Positions 16,371 to 38,168 of a stretch of DNA of 64,000 bases are shown here, piece by piece. The translations under genes and the position numbers were made by a program. Origin of the DNA: a virus; IMG/VR virus record IMGVR_UViG_3300050014_000619; one strand, 5' to 3'. Numbering within the stretch: position 1 is the first letter of the stretch; each line of letters starts with the position of its first letter. The notes under the pieces are model-generated. The model saw nothing but the letters and a program-made list of their open reading frames with translations, had not been told where the DNA came from and did no database searches.

Positions 16371-16790
16371 ATGAATTATAGTACATTTGATATTAACAAT
16401 TTTTTTATTAAGAAAGACAGTACACTTCCCGAATTAGAATATCCACTTGTTCAACAAGTAATGGAAATGTATAATATTACGGAAGATATGCTTGAAAATG
16501 TAGCTGTTACATTTTCTATGATCGATGCTCAAACTGGTTTATATCGCATTGCAAACGTACCCGCAAGTCTTGTTATTAGAAATGACAGACCAGCTTTTCC
16601 TGCAGATGAAAAATATACCTTCACATATAGATTTACATTAAGAGATACAAAAAAAGCTGGTAGATACAATGCAGAATTTGTCATCGATTTTTTAGGTGAG
16701 CAAATTGGTTGCGGAAAAATTAAATTACCTGTAAATGGTTATATCAATGTATTAATAAGTGATTCAATTACTAAAACCACTGTCGTCTAA
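16371..16790 (+). CDS. Ig-like structural protein (BppU N-terminal-like)
   Basis: FFIKKDSTLP..VTFSM..Y.F...DT.KAGRY.AEF pattern. Confidence 0.5.
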   Translation: MNYSTFDINNFFIKKDSTLPELEYPLVQQVMEMYNITEDMLENVAVTFSMIDAQTGLYRIANVPASLVIRNDRPAFPADEKYTFTYRFTLRDTKKAGRYNAEFVIDFLGEQIGCGKIKLPVNGYINVLISDSITKTTVV

Positions 16791-17530
16791 CCAATTAACA
16801 TATGTGAACATATTGTATCAAGCCAATTCTTTTTAAATGCAGCAGAATAAGCACTAACTGATTTTTTTTGAAATTCATATCTTGTATTATACTTAAGTGC
16901 TTCGGTTTGACATTTTTCAATACTCCAATAACCAGTAGGTTTTTGAGTTTTAATCATGTGTGTTGTAATTATATCAAGCCAATTATTTTTTAGTGCCGAA
17001 TTATATGCAGAACCAGAGGTTTTTTCAAATTTATATTTCGTATTGTATTTTAATGCTTCTTCTTTACATTTTTCAAAAGTCCAATATATCTTATTTCCAC
17101 CTAAAGCACCAGTTTTTGCTTTATTTAAAAGTTTCCATCCATTTGTTTTATAATTATTATACCAATAATTTTCTAATATTTTTGCTTCATCAATATCGAC
17201 AAATTCATTAACTAATATTTTATGCGTTGGTATTATGTTAGTTTTTAAAATGTGTTTATAAACAGGACTTTTAATATCGGTTATATGTTCCCAATTTCTT
17301 TTTATAATATTATATGTTAAACCAACATATACATAATTATCTGAAAATTCATATGAATATATTAATTTTTTATGTTGATTACCCAAAGGTATCATATGTG
17401 TACATATTTCATTTAAAAAATTTTTTCTTCTTGCTGTTTGATATGCTGAACTTGATTGATTTTTAAAATCAATTTTCGTTATATATTTTAATGCTTCTTT
17501 TTTGCATGTTTCAAAATTCCATTTATTCAT
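16787..17530 (-). mobile_element. GIY-YIG homing endonuclease with W..E.C..EALKY repeats
   Basis: IYSYEF..VYVGLT..R..EH, LLNKAKTG; three WxxExCxxEALKY repeats; own GTATTTAT on the minus strand. Confidence 0.8.
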
Positions 17531-17576: not shown

Positions 17577-17607
17577 TTGCAATTGAATTATTTATTATAT
17601 ATATTTG
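17577..17607 (+). promoter_or_regulatory. Bacteroidota sigmaA-type promoter (-33/-7)
   Basis: TTG-N20-TATATTTG upstream of the helicase. Confidence 0.7.
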
Positions 17608-26871: not shown

Positions 26872-29800
26872 ATGGTTAAACTAAAAATATTCGAATTATA
26901 CAACAATGCCGATGGAAATGACGATATGCTTTCTGATATCGGTAATGTTGGCATGGAAGTAAGACAAGGCATGTGGACATTTATGCCTGATAGAGTTGGC
27001 GATAATAGTCCAGCAATTCAAGAAGACGAAAATTTTAAATCTCCACAGGTAGACCAAGGTGTGTTAAAAAATCACGCATATGCCAGAGAATTAGCATATA
27101 CTTTTGCAAGAAAAATTGGCATACAAATAACAAAAGATTTGGGTGGCGGTGGAAATGGACGTGCATTCGAAATTAGTCCAGAAGTTGTGCTAAAATTAAC
27201 TACCGATGTCAGTGAAGTAGATGCTGCAATTAAAACGCTTAGAGAAGAACCAAAACATCTTGCTGAGATTTATGGAATTTATAAACTCATTGATACTGAG
27301 AAAAATGCATCGTTATATGCCATACTTCAAGAGCACATTCAAGAAAAACCATTGGAAAAATTCAGGGAATATAATAAAATAATAAATGCTATTATGCCAA
27401 GTGGTCTGGGACTTGAAGATTTTTTTGGTTTAATGAGATTACCTAAAAAATTTAATTATAGTGATTTAGCTGAAAAAGCAAAATTACTTCTTACAGATAC
27501 TCCAGAAGCGAACATTAATGAACAAGATAGAAAGGAAGCATATAATTATCTTATTGCATTACTTGATATAAGACAGGAATTAATTGATTATGGTATTAAA
27601 TCAACTGACTATTGGACTATTGCAAATCTTGGATATGATAAAGGTATATTAAAATATTTTGATGTCGGTGGATATGTTGCACCAAAACCAGAAATTCCAA
27701 AAGATCATGTGGTAACGTTGCCTGAAGATGGTAGCGCAAAATTTAGCACAGATAATGGTATTGGTCAAGATGATGAACCACCATATGATAACAATGACAC
27801 TTCACCCTCAATAGAAAATGATCTCAATGCAAATTTAAATATGCGTGAAGATTTGGAATACAATCACGTTAGTGATGCAACACAAGATCAATACGAGCTT
27901 GATGAAAGACAATTATCTTCAATGGCTGGAAGCAGTACTGTTGAAGTTAAACAGAAATGCAGATTAGCTGGAAATGGCAATACTTCAACCGCTTGCAATC
28001 AGGGTGATATAAGAAATCTGAATATCAAGCCATTGCATGAAAGTGCAAGTCTTAATATACCCGAAAATCTCAGTGGATATGATTCACTTAAAATAATGAA
28101 TGGTGATCAGACTGTAGGTGAGGTTGGAATTATGGACAGAGGTGTACATGGTGGAAATCATTATATTGCAATTGACAAAATCTTTATTAATAAGGAATTT
28201 AGGGGTAACGATTATGCAAATGATGCAATGAAATTGATTTTTGCTTATGCTGATAAAAATAATTTAATTGTTACCTTGACACCAGATAATATCTGGGGTG
28301 CAAGTGTACCAAAGTTAAAAGCATGGTATAAATCACTGGGATTTATTGAAAATAAAGGCAAGAAAAAAGATTTCCAGACTATGCAGTTAATGTATAGATT
28401 ACCAAAAACTCCTACAAATCTCAATGAAGACATTGACCCTAAAACAATTAATACAAACAGAAGGGCAATATATTCCGTAATTACTGGCAAAAGAAAATTG
28501 GCATTTGGTGAAGTTGATAAGCCATTAGGACAGGCAATTGAGAAAAGAGGTTTTGGTATAATACCAGTGAGAATGACTTCACGTCATGGTATGATGAGCA
28601 TAGTTTATAATAAAGATTCATATGAAAATGCAAGAAAACTTTATGAAATAGCTAAGACGCATGGTGATTATCTTACAGATAATACGGCAAGTGAAGCTCG
28701 TGAAATAGGTAGATTATTAGAATATAAAGAAGAAAGTATTGCAGAATATATAAAACAGAAATATGGTGACAGAGCATTATCTACACATGAAAAATCACCA
28801 GAAGACTTCGATGATCTTTCTGAAGATATGGATTTTTGGGATTTGAATGATTTAAATGAAGAGAACTTTCCAGCATTCGAAAAACAAATCGAAAAAGATG
28901 AAATTACTCACGGTCTTGATAAAAAAGTTCTTTATGAACAAGATGATTTTAAAGTATGTGTAGTTAATGGCGATGCTGTCAGAGGTAATGGTTTTGATGA
29001 ATGGGTAGATGGTGGTCATCATTATGTAGATGCTGATTTACCGAAAGACGAACAAAAATACGCTAAATTTATTCCAGAGGATGAAATTTGGATTGATGAC
29101 GTATTTTTATCAAAACCAAATGATATGGCAGCAATTATACTTCATGAAAAACTCGAAAGATATTTAATGAAGAATTATGGTATTGAATACGAAAATGCAC
29201 ACACAGATTATGCAAATAAAGCAGAAGTTGTCTTCAGAAAATTAGTTAAGGATGGTACTGGCTCACTTATAAGCCAGAAAATTTTCGATGCATTTGTAAA
29301 TAAATTTATACAAGACCATTCCGATAAAAAAGTTCATGAAGGAGTAGCAGATGTAGCTGCAGATAAACAGTTTGGTATACAACAACCACATGCGGGTTTT
29401 GAAGACAAATTCAACAGGGAAGAAAATGAAGAAGATGTAGTCTTTGCTGGTGATACTGATGGTATGATAATAATAAGAAATCCCAAATCATGGAAAAACA
29501 TATATGGCTATGTTAGGGGAATTATTGACCCAGAAGGTAATCTTTATATTCAACAAAAACCCGTAGGCATTCACTTTGAAATGCTTGAGGAATTGAATAA
29601 ATTAGGACTTGTTGACAATGAAGCAGATTGGGATGAAAAATTACCAACGAACTTTCTTACAGTACAACGATATTTAAGGTCGAATAAAATTTTACTCGGT
29701 GAATCAAACTCACCAAGATATCCAGAACCAAGAGACCCAAATTCTATGTTTTGGAGCAAAATTCCACCAGTTGAGGTAGCTATCCCATATTATCAGGCTT

Positions 29801-31197
29801 TCTTAGATAAGGCTAAAAAGAAAAATCCCAGCATGGATTTTATTAATGAGATAATAAGTACATATAGGAAACAGCATGAGAATGATGAAACGTTTGGTGG
29901 TAATGATTTTAATGAAAATTTAAAAAATTCTGATAATCATAATGATTTATATGTAGAAAATGTTAACTTTGCAAAAAATGATTCGATGAATGAGAATGAA
30001 ATAATGTCATTAGATGATTTGCCTTTCAAAGATGATGTTGAACGTCAAGGCGGTAAGGTATATAGTGTTGGTGGTGCAGTAAGGGATAAATTTTTAGGTA
30101 AAGAATCTAAGGACTTGGATGTTATTGTTACTGGCATTCCACTTGATAAATTGGAGAGAATCATATCGAGATATGGTGTTGTTAACTCAGTTGGTAAATC
30201 ATATGGTGTGTTGAAGTTCAAGCCACGTGGTGCTCCTGAAGACAGTGAAGATATTGATATTGTTATTCCACGTACAGATACCCCAACAGGCGGTGGTGGA
30301 TATCAGGATTTTGATATTCAATCAGATCATACCATACCACTTGAAAAAGATTTGGAACGTAGGGACTTTACCATTAATGCAATGGCAAGAGATAGAAATG
30401 GCGAAATAATTGACCCTTATGGTGGTCAGGAAGACCTGAAGAATAAAATTATTCGTGCAGTTAATCCCGAAGCATTTAGTGATGACCCACTGAGAATGTT
30501 ACGTGCTGTGCAATTTGCATGCCGTTTCGGTTTTACTATTGAGCCACACACAATGAAAATGATCAAAGACAATGTTGCGGAAATCAAACGTATTTCTGCT
30601 GAAAGATACTTAATTGAATTTGATAAGATCATTAAAAAGGGCAATATAGTAATGGGTGTTGAACTACTTATGGAAACAGGCTTGTTTTCACAGATATTTA
30701 ATGCACAGCCAAAAAATGTTACTCCTTTATTTGCCAAAGTTAAGACAATGGCTGAATTTCTTTATTTGCTTATGACTGGTTCTGTAAATAATCCTGCAGA
30801 ATTCTATTTGGAACATTTTGCAAGTGATGAAGATGCAAAAAGAAGTAAGAACTACAAAGAGATTCGTGCACTTGAAACAGGATTTGAAAGCGGTGAAGCA
30901 ACAAACTTAATCGAAGCACGTTCAATTGCACATAATATGTATCTTATATTTCCACAAGTGTTGGAAAGCCAGATATTACCAAACATAATCAGGGTTGCAT
31001 CGCAGGAATTACTTCAAGGTAAATATCCTAAGACTGTGAATGAATTGGCGGTTAATGGTAATGATTTAATGGAACTTGGTTTACAAGGTAAAGCAGTTGG
31101 TGATATGCAAAAATCATTATTATTGAAGATTTATTCAAATAAAGTTATGAATAATAAAGAAGATTTACTATCTTTGGCGGGTCAAAATGGAAAATAA
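26872..31197 (+). CDS. Multidomain polyprotein: protein-kinase-like + GNAT acetyltransferase + unknown domains + class II CCA-adding tRNA nucleotidyltransferase
   Basis: Kinase GGGGNG..VLKLT..DYWTIAN..YFD (~27100-27680); GNAT FINKEFRGND..WYKSLGF (~28045-28420); HEKLE domain; CCA VGGAVRD..DLD, DLERRDFTINAM, DDPLRMLRA, LAVNGNDLM (~30000-31190). Confidence 0.85.
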   Translation: MVKLKIFELYNNADGNDDMLSDIGNVGMEVRQGMWTFMPDRVGDNSPAIQEDENFKSPQVDQGVLKNHAYARELAYTFARKIGIQITKDLGGGGNGRAFEISPEVVLKLTTDVSEVDAAIKTLREEPKHLAEIYGIYKLIDTEKNASLYAILQEHIQEKPLEKFREYNKIINAIMPSGLGLEDFFGLMRLPKKFNYSDLAEKAKLLLTDTPEANINEQDRKEAYNYLIALLDIRQELIDYGIKSTDYWTIANLGYDKGILKYFDVGGYVAPKPEIPKDHVVTLPEDGSAKFSTDNGIGQDDEPPYDNNDTSPSIENDLNANLNMREDLEYNHVSDATQDQYELDERQLSSMAGSSTVEVKQKCRLAGNGNTSTACNQGDIRNLNIKPLHESASLNIPENLSGYDSLKIMNGDQTVGEVGIMDRGVHGGNHYIAIDKIFINKEFRGNDYANDAMKLIFAYADKNNLIVTLTPDNIWGASVPKLKAWYKSLGFIENKGKKKDFQTMQLMYRLPKTPTNLNEDIDPKTINTNRRAIYSVITGKRKLAFGEVDKPLGQAIEKRGFGIIPVRMTSRHGMMSIVYNKDSYENARKLYEIAKTHGDYLTDNTASEAREIGRLLEYKEESIAEYIKQKYGDRALSTHEKSPEDFDDLSEDMDFWDLNDLNEENFPAFEKQIEKDEITHGLDKKVLYEQDDFKVCVVNGDAVRGNGFDEWVDGGHHYVDADLPKDEQKYAKFIPEDEIWIDDVFLSKPNDMAAIILHEKLERYLMKNYGIEYENAHTDYANKAEVVFRKLVKDGTGSLISQKIFDAFVNKFIQDHSDKKVHEGVADVAADKQFGIQQPHAGFEDKFNREENEEDVVFAGDTDGMIIIRNPKSWKNIYGYVRGIIDPEGNLYIQQKPVGIHFEMLEELNKLGLVDNEADWDEKLPTNFLTVQRYLRSNKILLGESNSPRYPEPRDPNSMFWSKIPPVEVAIPYYQAFLDKAKKKNPSMDFINEIISTYRKQHENDETFGGNDFNENLKNSDNHNDLYVENVNFAKNDSMNENEIMSLDDLPFKDDVERQGGKVYSVGGAVRDKFLGKESKDLDVIVTGIPLDKLERIISRYGVVNSVGKSYGVLKFKPRGAPEDSEDIDIVIPRTDTPTGGGGYQDFDIQSDHTIPLEKDLERRDFTINAMARDRNGEIIDPYGGQEDLKNKIIRAVNPEAFSDDPLRMLRAVQFACRFGFTIEPHTMKMIKDNVAEIKRISAERYLIEFDKIIKKGNIVMGVELLMETGLFSQIFNAQPKNVTPLFAKVKTMAEFLYLLMTGSVNNPAEFYLEHFASDEDAKRSKNYKEIRALETGFESGEATNLIEARSIAHNMYLIFPQVLESQILPNIIRVASQELLQGKYPKTVNELAVNGNDLMELGLQGKAVGDMQKSLLLKIYSNKVMNNKEDLLSLAGQNGK

Positions 31198-32128
31198 TAG
31201 AAAAGAAATATTGATTTGTAATGAATGTAATAAAGAATTTAATTCATTAAAAGGATTGAAAAATCATAATAGATACGGATGTAGTACCAAATTACATTCA
31301 AATTATTTTAAATATTGCCCAATATGTAATGAAATAATACATTATGAAAGTAAAACTAAATATGATTATGCAATTAAAAATGATTCAAAATGCCATAAAT
31401 GTGGTAATATTGGTAGAGAAGTGTCTGAAAACACAAAAATTAAAACATCTAAAACATTAAAAGAAAAATATGATAATGGCACACTAATTCCAAACATGAT
31501 AGGCGCACATTCAAATGAATCAAGAAAAAAACAATCTGCAAAGAGAAAGAATTGTAAGTTAACTGAATCGCATAAATTAAATATTTCGATTGGTTTAAAT
31601 AAATCTGAAAATTTTAAAATATCCGTACATTCAAAAGAAAGAGGTAATAAAATTTCAAAAAAATTAACAAATAAAAAATTTTCAAAAGAACATATCATTA
31701 AACTTTCTGAATCACATGCAAATGTTGCGAACGAAAATAATCCGTTTTATAATAAAAGTCATACTAATGAAGCTAAGAATAAAATGAGAATTAGTGCCAT
31801 TGAAAGAATTAGATTAAATAAGTTTGAAAATAATCAAATAGTGCCGTTTTATAACAAAAGAGGTTGTGAATATTTTAATAATCTAATGAAAATCAATAAT
31901 TGTTTCATACAACACGCTGAAAATGGTGGTGAATTTTATATTAAGAAATTAGGATATTTTGTTGATGGATATGACGAAAAAAACAATATTGTTTATGAAT
32001 GGGATGAAAAACGTCATTTTCAAAAAGGTAAATTAATTGAAAGGGATATTATTAGAGAAAATGAAATTACCAATTTACTAAAATGTGCTTTTATTAGAAT
32101 TAAAGAAAGTGAGGTAAATAATGATTAA
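31187..32128 (+). mobile_element. Homing-endonuclease-like gene (Zn fingers, NUMOD3-like repeats, PD-(D/E)XK C-terminus)
   Basis: CNEC, CPIC, CHKC; HS.E...K.S repeats; NPFYNKSHT; VDGYD..VYEWDE. Confidence 0.75.
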
Positions 32129-32726
32129 GAAAATTATAGTTGAGGAAATTAAAAAATTTTTCTTAAATGAATTTGCTTATCCTGAAATGAGACCAGAAGA
32201 AAAGAATACTTGGGACATAAATGGAGAAAATGTTGACATTAATTTCTTTGTACATAAATATGATGAATGGAATCATCAGGGTGGTGAAAATAGTGGTTAT
32301 AAAGACCCTTCAGAAGCATCAGTGTTAGAATTTATAGAGAATAACTATGAAGATTTTACACATGATGAAAAATTAAAAAAAGAGTTGCTTTGGGCATTGA
32401 CAGATCGAGAAGTTTTAAATGAGAATGAATCTAAATATAATAAAGAAAAAGAAGCATTAATGAAATCAAAAAGTATTGATGCTGAAATGAAAGAAAAGAT
32501 TCTAAAATATTTTACTGCTGGTTCAACATATAAAGAAGGTGGACATGTACATGGTTTAAGCAAGCCAAAAGAATTAATGGACAAAACATCTAAAACAGAA
32601 GGTGTTAGTATGGGTGCAGATAAAGACGGATTCTTTGTATATACACATCGTCAAAGGTCTAAGTCATATGAATCACCCGAAAAAATATCAATAAAAGACA
32701 TTGAATTTACTGAAAGTACTGGCTAA
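32121..32726 (+). CDS. Two-domain hypothetical protein, putative internal head protein
   Basis: N-terminal IKKIIVEEIKKFFLNE; internal VLNE linker. Confidence 0.55.
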   Translation: MIKKIIVEEIKKFFLNEFAYPEMRPEEKNTWDINGENVDINFFVHKYDEWNHQGGENSGYKDPSEASVLEFIENNYEDFTHDEKLKKELLWALTDREVLNENESKYNKEKEALMKSKSIDAEMKEKILKYFTAGSTYKEGGHVHGLSKPKELMDKTSKTEGVSMGADKDGFFVYTHRQRSKSYESPEKISIKDIEFTESTG

Positions 32727-33382
32727 TGAAAAAAGAAAAATTACTTAAAGAACAACAACGCAATAAATTACTCGAAGATTCGGGCATAAATCTTGTTCAA
32801 AATGCAAATTTATTGTCAATTGATATTCAACCAGAATATCAAAATGCATTTAATTTTCAATTGAGTAATTATATACGATTTTTAAATAGAAATTTTGATA
32901 CTATGAATTCTCTTACATTTTTATATAATGGTGAGAATACTGTTGGTGGCGTAAGTGAAGGAGAATATAAAATGTGGTTAATAGAAAATGGTATTAAAGA
33001 ATCAATACTTGATTATGCCAGATTTTACGATAAAGGTTATGCATTTTTCAGAAGCTGTATGGATGATGGTCATGATGAAAAAGAAATTGTTAACTTAGTA
33101 AAATATATGATTAAACATGACATTAACGATAGTAGAGACATTGATGAAGAAATGTGGCAAGGTTTTATGACAGAATATGGATATGATTCAAGTGATGTTC
33201 GTGATTTTCTTGAACCAGCACAGGATTGCATTAATATACCAGATTTAATGGATTACTTACAAAAATTTTCTGGAAAAATAGTTATATGTGGCGGTGGAAT
33301 AAACCAATGCTTTAAAGAAGTAGAAATTGCTTTAAATGCATTGGAAAAAATTTATAATGTTTTAACAAAATTTACTTATTAA
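32726..33382 (+). CDS. Cysteine hydrolase (isochorismatase/nicotinamidase fold)-like protein
   Basis: LLSIDIQ, DKGY, IVICGGGINQC give a plausible D-K-C triad. Confidence 0.55.
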   Translation: MKKEKLLKEQQRNKLLEDSGINLVQNANLLSIDIQPEYQNAFNFQLSNYIRFLNRNFDTMNSLTFLYNGENTVGGVSEGEYKMWLIENGIKESILDYARFYDKGYAFFRSCMDDGHDEKEIVNLVKYMIKHDINDSRDIDEEMWQGFMTEYGYDSSDVRDFLEPAQDCINIPDLMDYLQKFSGKIVICGGGINQCFKEVEIALNALEKIYNVLTKFTY

Positions 33383-33431
33383 TTTTATTATTGTATAAGT
33401 GTGAGTTACTAAATCCTATAAAGTATTTATT

Positions 33432-33575
33432 ATGAAAAGCAAAGACAAAACAAAAACAGTTACACCAATGGATGTAGCAAGATTTGTTGGTGCTGAAAAA
33501 GACTATCAAGATGTTTTAAATAAGAATAGGGGTGCTTTGGTTGAAAATTTTTATAGCTTATTGAAAAAATTATGA
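33432..33575 (+). CDS. 47-aa protein missing from the ORF track
   Basis: MKSKDKTKTVTPMDVARFVG...LVENFYSLLKKL; directly after GTATTTAT; ATGA overlap with the next gene. Confidence 0.55.
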   Translation: MKSKDKTKTVTPMDVARFVGAEKDYQDVLNKNRGALVENFYSLLKKL

Positions 33576-33955
33576 GTAATATTTCTTATAGTGCAGTAGT
33601 TCTTGATGAAAGTTCAAGAAACCGATTAATCAGAAGATTCGAGTCATTAATACCCGAAGGCTGGGAAGTTGTTGCACATCATGCCACAATAAAGTTGGGC
33701 GAACTTGACCCAAATGAAAAATGGATGATTAATGAAGAAATTACATTGAGTGTAAATGATTTTGCAATGGATGATAAGGTTATGGCAGTTGGTGTTAGTG
33801 GCTCTGAAAGCCACAATGCCAAGCCACATATAACCATTGCTGTAAATCGACAAGCGGGTGGTAAACCAATGATGTCGAATAAATTAATTGACTGGAAAAA
33901 AATAAGAGTTCCCTTGGTGATAAGAGGAATCGTGACTGAAGTTGAATATAAGTAA
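33572..33955 (+). CDS. 2H phosphoesterase (2',3'-cyclic phosphodiesterase, tRNA-ligase CPD-like)
   Basis: Two HxT motifs (HATI, HITI), YSAVVLD start, KPMMSN. Confidence 0.8.
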   Translation: MSNISYSAVVLDESSRNRLIRRFESLIPEGWEVVAHHATIKLGELDPNEKWMINEEITLSVNDFAMDDKVMAVGVSGSESHNAKPHITIAVNRQAGGKPMMSNKLIDWKKIRVPLVIRGIVTEVEYK

Positions 33956-33956
33956 A

Positions 33957-34553
33957 ATGAGTAATGATGAGTATGTTGCAAAAAAACAGCAAAAAGATTT
34001 TGAAGAAGGTAAAAAACCACAAAAATTATTCGCAGATTTAATGCAGAAGAACGGGTTTCGCTGTTATAGCGCAACCAGTTATCAAGATAAATATGAACAT
34101 TGGGATATCCTGACTGTTGAAGACCTTGGAAATGGTACGAAAGTTTTTGAACGTTCGGACATAAAAGGTCTAAAGAACTGTGTAAAAGAAGGTTTCGAAT
34201 GGATGGAATTACAAACAATCGATGGAAGAATGGGTTGGTTGTATTCGGAATTTACAGATAATATAATATTTGAAATTGAAGATTGCTTTCTTTTCATAAA
34301 AAGAGCAGAATTACTTCCAATCATTGTAGCAAATGTAGCAAAGATGGACAAATTGGATGAAGAAGATGGGGAACGTCCACCAGTAGTTCATGTGATAAAA
34401 GACGGTCTTAAATATTATCAGAGGTACTGTAGAATATTGTGGGGTAATACAGATATAACTGTTATGTCACCATTTACGGATTTTCAGCATTTAATTTATA
34501 TGAAACTATATAAAGCAGACGGTAAAATAGAAAAATTTAATAGAAAACAATGA
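33957..34553 (+). CDS. Putative PD-(D/E)XK nuclease
   Basis: DKYEHWD..DIKG..WMEL..GWLY. Confidence 0.55.
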   Translation: MSNDEYVAKKQQKDFEEGKKPQKLFADLMQKNGFRCYSATSYQDKYEHWDILTVEDLGNGTKVFERSDIKGLKNCVKEGFEWMELQTIDGRMGWLYSEFTDNIIFEIEDCFLFIKRAELLPIIVANVAKMDKLDEEDGERPPVVHVIKDGLKYYQRYCRILWGNTDITVMSPFTDFQHLIYMKLYKADGKIEKFNRKQ

Positions 34554-34573
34554 AAAGATTGGCAGTATTTGAT
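34550..34573 (+). pseudogene. Orphan 5' stub (MKRLAVFD) of the HAD phosphatase gene
   Basis: ATG AAA AGA TTG GCA GTA TTT GAT matches IKRLSVFD of ORF 35632 and ends at the endonuclease stop codon. Confidence 0.7.
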
Positions 34574-35583
34574 TATATGTACTTAAAAGAATATCCTTTA
34601 CAATGTTTTCTATCCCCCCTAGTAACTCTTTGTATACTTTCATATTTTACATTAATTTTATTGGATGCTTCATGTATATTATTAAATGTTTTAATATAAT
34701 TATTTGATATATAATCATACATTTCTATTTTACGTAAATTTGGGGTTCTATCATACGTTCCTATTTTATATTCTTTAAGTGTTTGGAATAAATTATATTT
34801 TCTTGTAAGTCTAAGATTTTCGGAATCTTCGTAAATATTATTTTTTAATATTAAAAGGTCTTTATATGAATTATATTTTAGTACTACAAGCCTATTATTA
34901 TTTGAAGAATATTTGGTGATACTTACTTTAGTGTTTGATAAACCATATAAATTAAAACTTTTCTTTATCTCAGTAATTAAATTTTCTGAACCGATAATTG
35001 AAAAACATAATGCACCATTCTTTCTCTTTTTTTCTTTATTAATTGATCCATCCCCATCGAAAACACCACGTATGAAGTGCCAAAAATATTCTTGAGGTAT
35101 GTCAGGCATTATACAATTAAATGACTTATTTGAGTGAACACCTAATTTATTGAGATCATTAACAATTTCTTTAGATGCTATTTGTAGAGAATAGCGTGTA
35201 TATGTTTTATTGGTTCTTTTATCAAAGACATTATATTTGGCTAATTTATGCTCGGATTTAATTTCCCTTTTTAACATATCAACTAACTCGATGTCTCTTG
35301 AAGTTAAAACTAACTTATATCGGTTATCAACATATCCATCAGATATAATCAAGCCCAATAAATATGCTTTATTTTTAGCATTAATAATTTTGAAAAATTC
35401 GGTATTAATTTTATATCTTCTATTATTACCGTCATGTGATTTATTGTTTATTGTGTATCCATGCTTTTTTAATTGATATTTAATGGTTGAATACGAAACA
35501 TTAATAATTTTTGAAATTTTTGTTATTGTATAATTTTCATTAAAATAATAATGAGCAATTTGATTAATATCATATTTATTCAT
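34573..35583 (-). mobile_element. Double-motif LAGLIDADG homing endonuclease with HTH/NUMOD1-like ends
   Basis: AYLLGLIISDG and FIRGVFDGDG; start at 35583 follows minus-strand GTATTTAT (35599-35606). Confidence 0.88.
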
Positions 35584-35589
35584 ATCTTT

Positions 35590-35606
35590 GTATTTATAAT
35601 AAATAC
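35590..35606. promoter_or_regulatory. Two oppositely oriented GTATTTAT motifs
   Basis: GTATTTAT (+) at 35590 upstream of 35632; ATAAATAC at 35599 upstream of the minus-strand endonuclease. Confidence 0.65.
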
Positions 35607-35631
35607 TTATAATTTCGAATAATATAACCTT

Positions 35632-36228
35632 ATGACTACGGAAAAACACAAAAATACAATTAAACGCCTCAGTGTCTTTGATCTGGATGCGACAATTCTT
35701 GACACTCCAACACCAGAAGAAGGAAAAAAAATATGGGAAAAATATTACAAAAAGCCATTTTCATATAAGGGTTGGTGGAGTAAGCCAGAGAGCCTTGATA
35801 CTGAAGTATTCGATATTAAACCTTTTCCAGCAGTTCTGGCAGAACTTAATAAAGAAAAAGCAACACCTGACACTGCTGTTATTATCTTAACATCAAGAGT
35901 GGAAAGATTACGTCCACAGGTTGAGAACGTGCTTAAACTCAATAATATTTCCGTAGATGATGTTCTATTGAAAAATAGTAATGAAGATAAGGGTGATATT
36001 ATTTTAAAAATCTCAGTTTATAATCCAGACCTTCGAGAAATCGTAGTGTATGATGACTTTATGGAAAAAAATGAAGCTAAGATTCAGGAATATACGAAAA
36101 TCATCGGTGAATTATCACCAGAGATTCAATATACTTTGTATTATGTTGACAACGGTAGGATTACTTTACTGGAATCCACTAATATAATATTGAAAATGAT
36201 ATCAGATGAAATTCGAAAATTAATTTAA
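35632..36228 (+). CDS. HAD-family phosphatase (RNA-repair 'Swiss Army knife'-like)
   Basis: VFDLDATILDTP, GWWSKPESL, ILTSR, K, VYDD. Confidence 0.8.
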   Translation: MTTEKHKNTIKRLSVFDLDATILDTPTPEEGKKIWEKYYKKPFSYKGWWSKPESLDTEVFDIKPFPAVLAELNKEKATPDTAVIILTSRVERLRPQVENVLKLNNISVDDVLLKNSNEDKGDIILKISVYNPDLREIVVYDDFMEKNEAKIQEYTKIIGELSPEIQYTLYYVDNGRITLLESTNIILKMISDEIRKLI

Positions 36229-36252
36229 ACGTATTTATAGTAAAATATTTGA

Positions 36253-36987
36253 ATGGGACTATGCTCAAATAAGGAAAAATTTATTATTGCTGCACAAATA
36301 AAGCATAATAGCAAATATGACTATTCCAAAGTAGTATATGTTGGTAACAAAGATAAAATAACAATTATTTGTCCTAAACATGGTGAATTTTCACAGAGAC
36401 CAAATGATCATTTAACTGGATATGGCTGTAAGAAATGCCAATACGAAAAAATCTCAAAAGAAAATAAATTTACAAATAATATTTTTATTGAAAAGGCAAA
36501 TAAAAAACATAATAATACATATGATTATTCATTAGTTAAATATAATGGATATGAAAATAAAATTACTATTATTTGTAAAAAGCATGGTGAGTTTAATCAA
36601 TCGCCACATGCACATTTGGGTGGCGCAGGATGCCCTAAATGTAAAGAATCTTTTGGTGAGAAAAAAATTGCAGAAATCTTATTAAAATATAATATTCAAT
36701 TTGAAAGAGAGAAAACATTTAAAGATTTAAAATACAGAGCTAACTTATATTATGATTTTTATTTACCAAATCATAAAGTATTTATTGAATATCATGGAAT
36801 ACAACATTTTGCGCCAGTAAAATTTTTTGGCGGTAAAAATGCGCTTATTGAAACAAGAAAACGTGATATAATTAAATTGAAGTATGCTATAAATAATAAT
36901 TATTTGTTAATTTCATTATATAATATTCCAATAAAACATATGGATGAATTATTAACGAAAGCATTAAACTATAAATCAATAATATGA
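36253..36987 (+). mobile_element. Homing-endonuclease-like gene (two Zn repeats + DUF559-like nuclease)
   Basis: Two KH...YDYS.V.Y....KITIIC.KHGEF.Q.P..HL.G.GC..C repeats; YDFYLP..IEYHG.QH. Confidence 0.78.
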
Positions 36988-37808
36988 GCAGGATATCACC
37001 AAAATATTTACCACAAGTGGGTGCACCAATTGATTTAATTTTTGAAAAACTTATTGAAAATGACTGTGAGTATATGAACATTCAAATGAATCCTAATGAA
37101 CTACAATCATCGCAACCATTTACATTATCCGATGATGTTCACACTGCAGTAAACGATGATATGCATCCTATATGGATTGATAATGAAATGAAAATTATTG
37201 ACGGTCATCATAAATGGGTTAAAGCACTACTTGATAACACACCAATATTTGTTGTTAAATTAAGTATGGATTTTAAAAATGCTGCAAGACTTTTAAATAA
37301 GATTCAAGATATATATGAATATGAACAGCATCAAGGAATGGAAGAAGTGGAAGCACAAGATGCAATCAACATGGATAATCAAGCAGATTCAGGCATTAGT
37401 GATAGTGAATTTCTTAATACATTAGAAGAAGATAATCTCAATGCACAATCAGGAGATACTTCAACTAACGGACAGGTAATCATTGGCTATAGAAAAGACC
37501 CAATAAAAGAAAATTCAGTTATTGGTAATTTTTTTATGTTGAAACCCGTTGAGGGTTTTGATAAATATGAAATTGAATTTGATAATTTACTTGATGTACA
37601 TTCTCTGGGAGTCGTATACAAAGATGGTCAGAATCCCATAGACATTCTTTCAAAGGTTTGGTTTCCACATGTGAATTTTGAAAAATTAAGTCAACAATAT
37701 AATATGCCAGTAGAAAACCTGAAGTGTAAAGCAATTGCAGAAAAAGCAGTTAAAATGGGCTATGATGGCATTAAATATGGCGATACATTAGTACAAGGAT
37801 TAAAATAA
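36984..37808 (+). CDS. ParB/Srx-like N-terminal domain protein
   Basis: PIWID..IIDGHHKW; acidic linker; C-terminal GYDGIKY. Confidence 0.6.
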   Translation: MSRISPKYLPQVGAPIDLIFEKLIENDCEYMNIQMNPNELQSSQPFTLSDDVHTAVNDDMHPIWIDNEMKIIDGHHKWVKALLDNTPIFVVKLSMDFKNAARLLNKIQDIYEYEQHQGMEEVEAQDAINMDNQADSGISDSEFLNTLEEDNLNAQSGDTSTNGQVIIGYRKDPIKENSVIGNFFMLKPVEGFDKYEIEFDNLLDVHSLGVVYKDGQNPIDILSKVWFPHVNFEKLSQQYNMPVENLKCKAIAEKAVKMGYDGIKYGDTLVQGLK

Positions 37809-37814
37809 AAAACT

Positions 37815-38168
37815 ATGAATACATACAAAATTACAAACATAACAAATTTCGCAGGTAAGCGTGATTATAAATTCAATTCCGATTTGGATATTGAGTACGT
37901 TGATAACATGATGAAAAAAACAGTTAAGGTTAAACCTAATCAAACAGTTTTCTTAACAGTTGAATCTCTTCCATTGTCTGTACACAGACTTAGGGTAAAA
38001 AATTTAGTAACAGTTACTGAAGTCAGCAAAAACGAATTGGCTGGATTGATGGCAGAACAGAAAAAGCCTGTGCCAGTAGCAGCAGTAGTTCAGGTGGAAG
38101 TTCCTGAAGAAATGTCAGCAAATGAGATAAAGCCTATAAAGAGAAAGAAAAAAGATAACGAAGAGTAA
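37815..38168 (+). CDS. Hypothetical protein
   Basis: Clean ORF in operon. Confidence 0.6.
   Translation: MNTYKITNITNFAGKRDYKFNSDLDIEYVDNMMKKTVKVKPNQTVFLTVESLPLSVHRLRVKNLVTVTEVSKNELAGLMAEQKKPVPVAAVVQVEVPEEMSANEIKPIKRKKKDNEE

Follow-up and report, generated by a model that had tools for sequence, protein, structure and literature searches.

The window analyzed here is a stretch of 64,000 nucleotides (64 kb), which is part of an 83-kb contig of an A/T-rich phage from peat metagenomes. It carries an RNA-repair cluster, in which the genes of a CCA-adding enzyme, a 2H phosphodiesterase and a HAD phosphatase are present with endonuclease-like genes in between, and this cluster is an endonuclease hotspot. 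The HAD gene lies head-to-head with a LAGLIDADG endonuclease gene, and on the other side of the endonuclease there is a stub which carries the old start of the HAD gene. The positions of all features are given in Table 1.

Table 1. Features of the RNA-repair cluster and the HAD/endonuclease locus (positions in the window unless a locus is named)
Feature	Position	Strand	Remark
CCA-adding enzyme	26872-31197		
2H phosphodiesterase	33572-33955		
Upstream gene	33957-34553	+	PD-(D/E)XK-like fold, lead only
Small PD-(D/E)XK-like genes between 2H phosphodiesterase and HAD	window 33957-34553; L005:2961-4007; L002:3387-3989		
Stub MKRLAVFD, 8 codons, old HAD start up to first catalytic Asp	34550-34573	+	
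Endonuclease stop codon	34573-34575	-	
LAGLIDADG endonuclease, 336 aa	35583 to 34573	-	ATG 35583; intact, free-standing
Predicted Bacteroidota host-type HAD promoter (-33/-7)	35559-35590	+	
GTATTTAT phage promoter-like motif facing HAD	35590-35597	+	perfect in 6/15 loci
GTATTTAT phage promoter-like motif facing endonuclease	35599-35606	-	perfect in 12/15 loci
HAD phosphatase, complete, HAD_SAK_1 / PNK-like	35632-36228	+	catalytic residues kept
Putative cassette-borne HAD 5′ end: 9-aa extension, off-consensus codons, DxD	35632-35770	+	mosaic identity

The source lineage is an uncultured jumbo phage, and viral contigs with related loci reach approximately 350-365 kb. No cultured phage relative was found; the best HAD matches were in uncultured phages of 595-642 kb at 30-34% identity. 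The host is probably a member of Bacteroidota, because the element TTG-N-TAnnTTTG is enriched 12-fold in the plus-strand non-coding DNA (promoter consensus from PMC6847099).

The neighbourhood of the locus is variable. The upstream gene is one of several genes which are swapped at that position among relatives. In many relatives the gap between the 2H phosphodiesterase and the HAD gene holds small PD-(D/E)XK-like genes, one or two in number and interchangeable, which are absent in others and are possibly a second free-standing homing family at the same junction. The cluster is flanked by two further endonuclease-like genes (31187-32128 and 36253-36987), of NUMOD3-bearing and of DUF723/HNH-like type, the latter with its own GTATTTAT. 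Different LAGLIDADG genes were seen just 3′ of the cluster in L003, L106 and L335. The CCA-adding enzyme, the 2H phosphodiesterase and their neighbours are fused or split in various ways (window 26872-33955; L002, L003, L005, L177), giving proteins of 619 to more than 2200 aa among relatives, some of them with Acb1 or ART domains.

The layout of the locus is repeated in IMG/VR contig L001, and a contig from an independent study covers 34454-35746 with 0 differences; an assembly error as the source of the layout is ruled out by these two contigs. The DNA pattern scans of viral contigs gave L001's contig or no match.

The restart codon of the HAD gene is at 35632 and the first Asp codon at 35680, the DxD being encoded at 35680-35688. 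HAD motifs I-IV are present and the catalytic residues D17, D19, K120 and D142 are kept. The HAD_SAK_1 profile scored 22.2 bits against a cut-off of 25.6 and many homologs carry PF10307; the product is predicted to be an RNA-repair phosphatase of HAD_SAK_1 type. The stub begins with an ATG at 34550 which shares bases with the TGA of the upstream ORF (ATGA coupling). At its other end, the final T of the Asp codon also serves as the final base of the endonuclease stop codon, an overlap of 1 nt, and beyond it the reading frame of the stub runs on as 49 aa of antisense junk. All these parts (stub, coupling, endonuclease stop and HAD restart) had been described in a first-pass annotation and are present. 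When compared with the consensus start of empty alleles, i.e. those lacking the endonuclease, the stub is mismatched at 1/24 nt, and it is not a chance match because the next-best site in the 83-kb contig has 6 mismatches.

The endonuclease has an N-terminal HTH, two LAGLIDADG motifs and a C-terminal NUMOD1/I-HmuI-like domain, and matched PF14528 in a profile search (E 5e-9). A GTG start at 35649 was rejected as a spurious extension of the ORF, as the homologs begin at the ATG. Its structure model has a pLDDT of 90.7 with I-Tsp061I as the top fold match (E 3.8e-9), and the catalytic residues D82 and D178 are invariant in 34 homologs. By its fold and its two acidic motifs the protein belongs to the LAGLIDADG homing endonucleases, with a predicted cleavage target which is drawn from the stub ends and the codon contrast described below. 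Comparison with nine relatives gave dN/dS values of 0.18-0.30, which show, at the level of codon substitutions, an intact gene under purifying selection.

The gene is a separate antisense ORF outside any intron or intein, and the arrangement is intronless (free-standing). The first-pass annotation had seen no room for an intron, and the searches agree: the Rfam search found no intron at the locus, the ORF has 0 free nt on its left and 48 nt on its right, and the bases at the would-be splice sites are wrong. A group I intron with endonuclease was rejected, as there is neither a catalytic RNA core (Rfam) nor the U and G of the splice sites, and the MFE fold of the insert was uninformative. It could be supposed that stub and HAD body are brought together again by ribosomal bypass or by a self-splicing intron which is degenerate or escaped recognition, since an in-frame joint with the downstream copy is possible at the very Asp where the stub ends. 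However, no register of the repeated TTTGAT yields a U-ending exon together with a G-ending intron, the ORF is antisense, and the stub is missing in 10/15 loci, so that along with the Rfam result and the lack of space such a rejoining is very improbable.

For the distribution of the endonuclease, 75 distinct HAD alleles with flanks, plus L335, were compared, of which 54 were empty, 15 carried the endonuclease and 6 were relic candidates. Nearly all empty alleles have a short start (MKRL or MIKRL) which immediately follows, or overlaps with, an upstream gene that varies, and a contiguous MKRLAVFD-F-D is found in endonuclease-free relatives, as the first-pass annotation had expected. All 15 endonuclease-bearing alleles have the enzyme antisense and head-to-head with the HAD gene, mostly with a spacer of 40-75 nt.

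On the HAD tree (FastTree) the 15 endonuclease-bearing tips are scattered: they need 13 changes, where shuffling gave a mean of 14.0. The window enzyme is 70-74% identical to the enzymes of L012, L171, L334 and L176, with HAD cores only 42-52% identical, and the HAD core of the empty allele L003 is 77% identical to that of the window. These comparisons point to a patchy spread across HAD lineages with a co-converted flank, as in free-standing homing. The identities of enzyme and HAD core are correlated (rho 0.61), and a Mantel test gave no significant sign that the 5′ piece follows the enzyme (rho 0.16, p 0.15). The correlation, the extra HTH and NUMOD DNA-binding domains and the relics, which are evidence of loss, would also fit a domesticated regulator, or a passive passenger left by an ancestral insertion with repeated loss. 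Such a protein is nevertheless improbable here: both catalytic Asp are invariant among the homologs, the stubs are copies of a resident-type start but are not alike from locus to locus, so that insertion must have occurred repeatedly, the HAD gene is mosaic, and the same geometry is present beside unrelated HAD families.

The stub is found in 5 of the 15 endonuclease-bearing loci, i.e. the window, L014, L172, L177 and, in shorter form, L176. In the other ten the junction coincides with the HAD start codon or falls within the final codons of the upstream gene, so the left junctions range from these codons up to the first Asp codon. The longest stubs (window, L014, L177) end at TTT-GA, and in L172 and L177 the stub read in reverse provides the last codons and the stop of the endonuclease. 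Because only this minority of loci has a stub, ending at or near the first Asp codon, the stub appears to be a scar of the recipient allele, a rough mark of the cut rather than an insertion site that is fixed. The cut is predicted at or just 3′ of the first Asp codon, since the stubs end there as if a break had been resected and joined on the side without homology, in the manner of one-sided homing in T4. The first-pass annotation had placed the endonuclease inside the catalytic motif; its tie to DxD genes stands, but a stub which is missing in most loci and varies in length indicates instead an upstream cassette which overwrites the HAD 5′ end.

Such an overwriting is also seen in the HAD gene itself. 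Its nucleotide identity to the closest empty allele, L003, is 43-67% up to 90 nt past the Asp codon and mostly 77-100% beyond, and around the Asp it is 73-80% identical to the relic L335, whose body is distant. By this identity pattern the HAD gene of the window is a mosaic with a predicted crossover to the resident allele near 35770, and the replacement would be a foreign 5′ piece of approximately 140 nt reaching about 90 nt past the Asp. The N-terminus had earlier been described as recoded; the 5′ end is indeed replaced, but by a foreign allele of this length and not by just a few recoded codons. The element ATGAYTAYG (35632-35640 in the window, and in relatives) is conserved at a distance of approximately 39-48 nt from the Asp codon, on its 5′ side. 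As this also holds in L013 and L177, where the element is not in the HAD frame, it may act as DNA or RNA, for example as an operator. The analysis gave no support for reading it as another genome-wide promoter copied in antisense.

The codon contrast itself was recovered, the endonuclease-linked alleles being GC-richer and off-consensus just before the Asp. Against the 26-nt consensus of the empty alleles, endonuclease-bearing alleles have a median of 9 mismatches and empty ones 5 (p 1.9e-6; 11 in the window), the p-values of these comparisons being optimistic as the tips are related and share cassette ancestry. The departure from the empty profile is greatest at Asp-18 to -4 (p 6e-7) and +12 to +26 (p 1e-4), and weaker or absent over the rest of the gene. 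Val is encoded by GTA in 0/8 cases in endonuclease-bearing alleles versus 20/24 in empty ones, and Leu by CTN in 10/12 versus 12/50. GC3 before the Asp is 0.41 in endonuclease-bearing alleles against 0.21 in the gene body (p 7e-5), and in empty alleles it is 0.12 against 0.21. The contrast is not one inherited variant, because the 15 alleles are only 46% alike before the Asp. Immunity of the donor allele through diverged target codons is likely on these figures; the mismatch ranges overlap (5-13 in endonuclease-bearing, 0-13 in empty alleles), so sequence alone is no proof of it, and an A/T-rich start ramp of the empty alleles may account for some of the contrast.

It is also conceivable, although unlikely, that a homing cassette is present but the codon differences reflect separate ancestry of the 5′ end and release from the A/T-rich start constraint, with protection coming from elsewhere (timing, DNA modification or a target spanning the old upstream junction). 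The low GC3 of the empty alleles before the Asp is as expected for a start ramp, and some endonuclease-bearing alleles are only 5-6 mismatches off consensus. However, GC3 in the endonuclease-bearing alleles rises above the gene-body level and is not relaxed to it, the short-start alleles L013, L177 and L019 are off-consensus too, and the low likeness among the 15 alleles leaves no single inherited variant. The upstream gene is also too variable to hold a conserved target across that junction.

The spacer between the two genes was analyzed for promoters. Two GTATTTAT copies in opposite orientation form a palindrome at 35590-35606, which occurs nowhere else in the window (0.01 expected by chance). 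Genome-wide GTATTTAT is a sense-strand motif (31 plus, 3 minus), and 2/3 of the minus copies precede the two antisense endonuclease genes. The other predicted promoter has its -33 box TTTG (35559-35562) in the endonuclease coding region, followed after 20 nt by TAnnTTTG (35583-35590), which begins on the complement of the endonuclease ATG. At this place TAnnTTTG is perfect in 11/15 spacers, against a background of 12/581 gene starts, and TTG is present 19-20 nt 5′ of it, within the enzyme coding region, in 13/15 loci. The HAD promoter had earlier been assigned to GTATTTAT; the motif is there in the window, but as its plus-strand copy is perfect in fewer loci (Table 1), TAnnTTTG is the better-conserved candidate, to which shared ancestry and the initiation region of the enzyme may also add conservation. 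A sigma-70 scan stayed at chance level (19 vs 20.9). Elsewhere in the window an antisense GIY-YIG gene with its own GTATTTAT (16787-17530, minus strand) lies head-to-head with an SNF2 helicase gene (17626, plus strand) which has a TTG-N-TAnnTTTG promoter at 17600, the same geometry as at the HAD locus with a different enzyme family; no stub was seen at that locus.

Long MTT-type starts without endonuclease, which the first-pass annotation had counted against its own reading, are literally present in six loci (L335, L002, L107, L108, L112, L115). But L108, L115 and L335 are to be regarded as relics of the cassette, because the first codons of the endonuclease and the promoter persist in them, L335 keeping 36 endonuclease codons. 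In the relics L010 and L115 the stub is joined at short microhomology to the cassette spacer or the first codons of the enzyme, and these joints may be deletions or partial conversions. In L010:3001-3615 (P0024) the stub is fused in frame to the replacement start with no endonuclease, giving a HAD protein with a doubled N-terminus.

Taken as a whole, the locus is probably a free-standing homing cassette which brings a replacement for the HAD 5′ end, and this replacement would be protected. The cassette would consist of the endonuclease gene, the divergent promoters and its own 5′ piece of the HAD gene. During co-infection, a HAD allele that lacks the cassette would be cut by the enzyme in its conserved motif-I sequence, at the first Asp codon or immediately 3′ of it (about TTT GAT TTT GAT). 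The right end would be repaired by homologous recombination within the HAD body (near 35770 in the window), and the left end, facing the variable upstream gene, by variable resection and joining at little or no homology, so that the old start may sometimes survive as a stub. With the antisense insertion the HAD gene is severed from its operon and translational coupling, and the cassette would make up for this with a new start codon and a promoter, part of the latter within the first codons of the endonuclease. The carried 5′ piece would protect the donor by differing at the target, and later decay of the cassette or partial conversion of recipients could leave promoter and replacement start without the enzyme. 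In four peat runs no empty allele was found among near-identical strains, and the cassette pieces showed 0 differences with some in the flanks; but L001 is also identical over 35843-38117, and a sweep is not claimed for that reason.

The usual view is that a homing endonuclease can sit at an active-site codon only within an intron or intein, and otherwise stays at a distance. The present family lies approximately 100 nt from its predicted target, and the damage would be met by bringing the front of the gene and a promoter.

Mobile endonuclease ORFs (mORFs) with a replacement gene terminus are known in fungal mitochondria, in atp6 of Allomyces macrogynus and in atp6, atp9, cox2 and nad3 of Glomus (PMC3630166). 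They are alike in being splicing-free endonuclease elements in a conserved gene which bring a diverged foreign gene end and strand the native end, and the duplicated end is also seen here in 5/15 loci (in the window, 1/24 mismatches in the stranded stub and 11/26 in the carried copy). The mORFs replace the C-terminus, are co-transcribed and often in phase, whereas the phage cassette replaces the N-terminus, is antisense and brings a new promoter and start; it works like an mORF but, being N-terminal, antisense and from a phage, is not a member. Intronless homing by free-standing endonucleases is represented by SegF, SegG and MobE of T4 (PMC2988022; PMC13565253), and one-sided homing with microhomology joints is known for T4 (PMC2988022). 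Here too an endonuclease stands beside a conserved gene, with donor substitutions and co-conversion of flanks. The T4 enzymes, however, are GIY-YIG or HNH, cut hundreds to thousands of bp away and have no stub or supplied start, whereas the phage enzyme is a LAGLIDADG with a predicted cut approximately 100 nt from its own start. The cassette is therefore a member of neither set. I-Tsp061I, I-DmoI and the intein-type PI-PfuI (PF14528) have the fold and the two catalytic motifs in common with the window enzyme, which differs in lying outside an intron or intein, in its added HTH and NUMOD and in an identity of only 16-20%. The HEG islands of ICP1 and other phages, as outlined in PMC10448857, are similar in that several endonuclease genes are grouped about one conserved module, which in the window comprises CCA enzyme, 2H phosphodiesterase and HAD; a term search of that paper gave no passage on carried replacement starts. 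The literature search, which covered few subscription papers, gave no phage paper on N-terminal replacement cassettes, and this is no proof of novelty.

The series of empty, full, stub, fused and relic alleles narrows the predicted cut site down to a few bases and provides ready donor and recipient substrates for the target and the immunity rule, and an uncharacterised meganuclease scaffold with extra DNA-binding domains is on offer. Annotators are also warned by it, since homing can be the origin of a long N-terminus or of a short duplicated start in a phage gene.

When the closest endonuclease loci were fetched by the enzyme alone (L022 included), 17/18 faced a gene with DxD near its start. 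At 34-40% enzyme identity the partners were a HAD_SAK_2 gene (L024), a hydrolase-like HAD (L023) and NT5C-type genes (L027, L252); other more distant LAGLIDADGs, among the matches listed, had no link to such genes. A tentative and rather doubtful extension is that this LAGLIDADG clade is specialised on HAD motif I DNA and has moved among HAD_SAK_1, HAD_SAK_2 and NT5C genes as an N-terminal cassette with a promoter partly in its own coding sequence, in which case each homing would re-time the phosphatase from operon-coupled to independent expression, a change which could outlast loss of the enzyme. The L015 group is an exception, its enzyme (60% identical) being located approximately 4.8 kb from the HAD gene and facing another gene. 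At L015:2335-2500 the enzyme is still antisense with TAnnTTTG still at its start codon, and the gene it faces is a large one of the CCA region.
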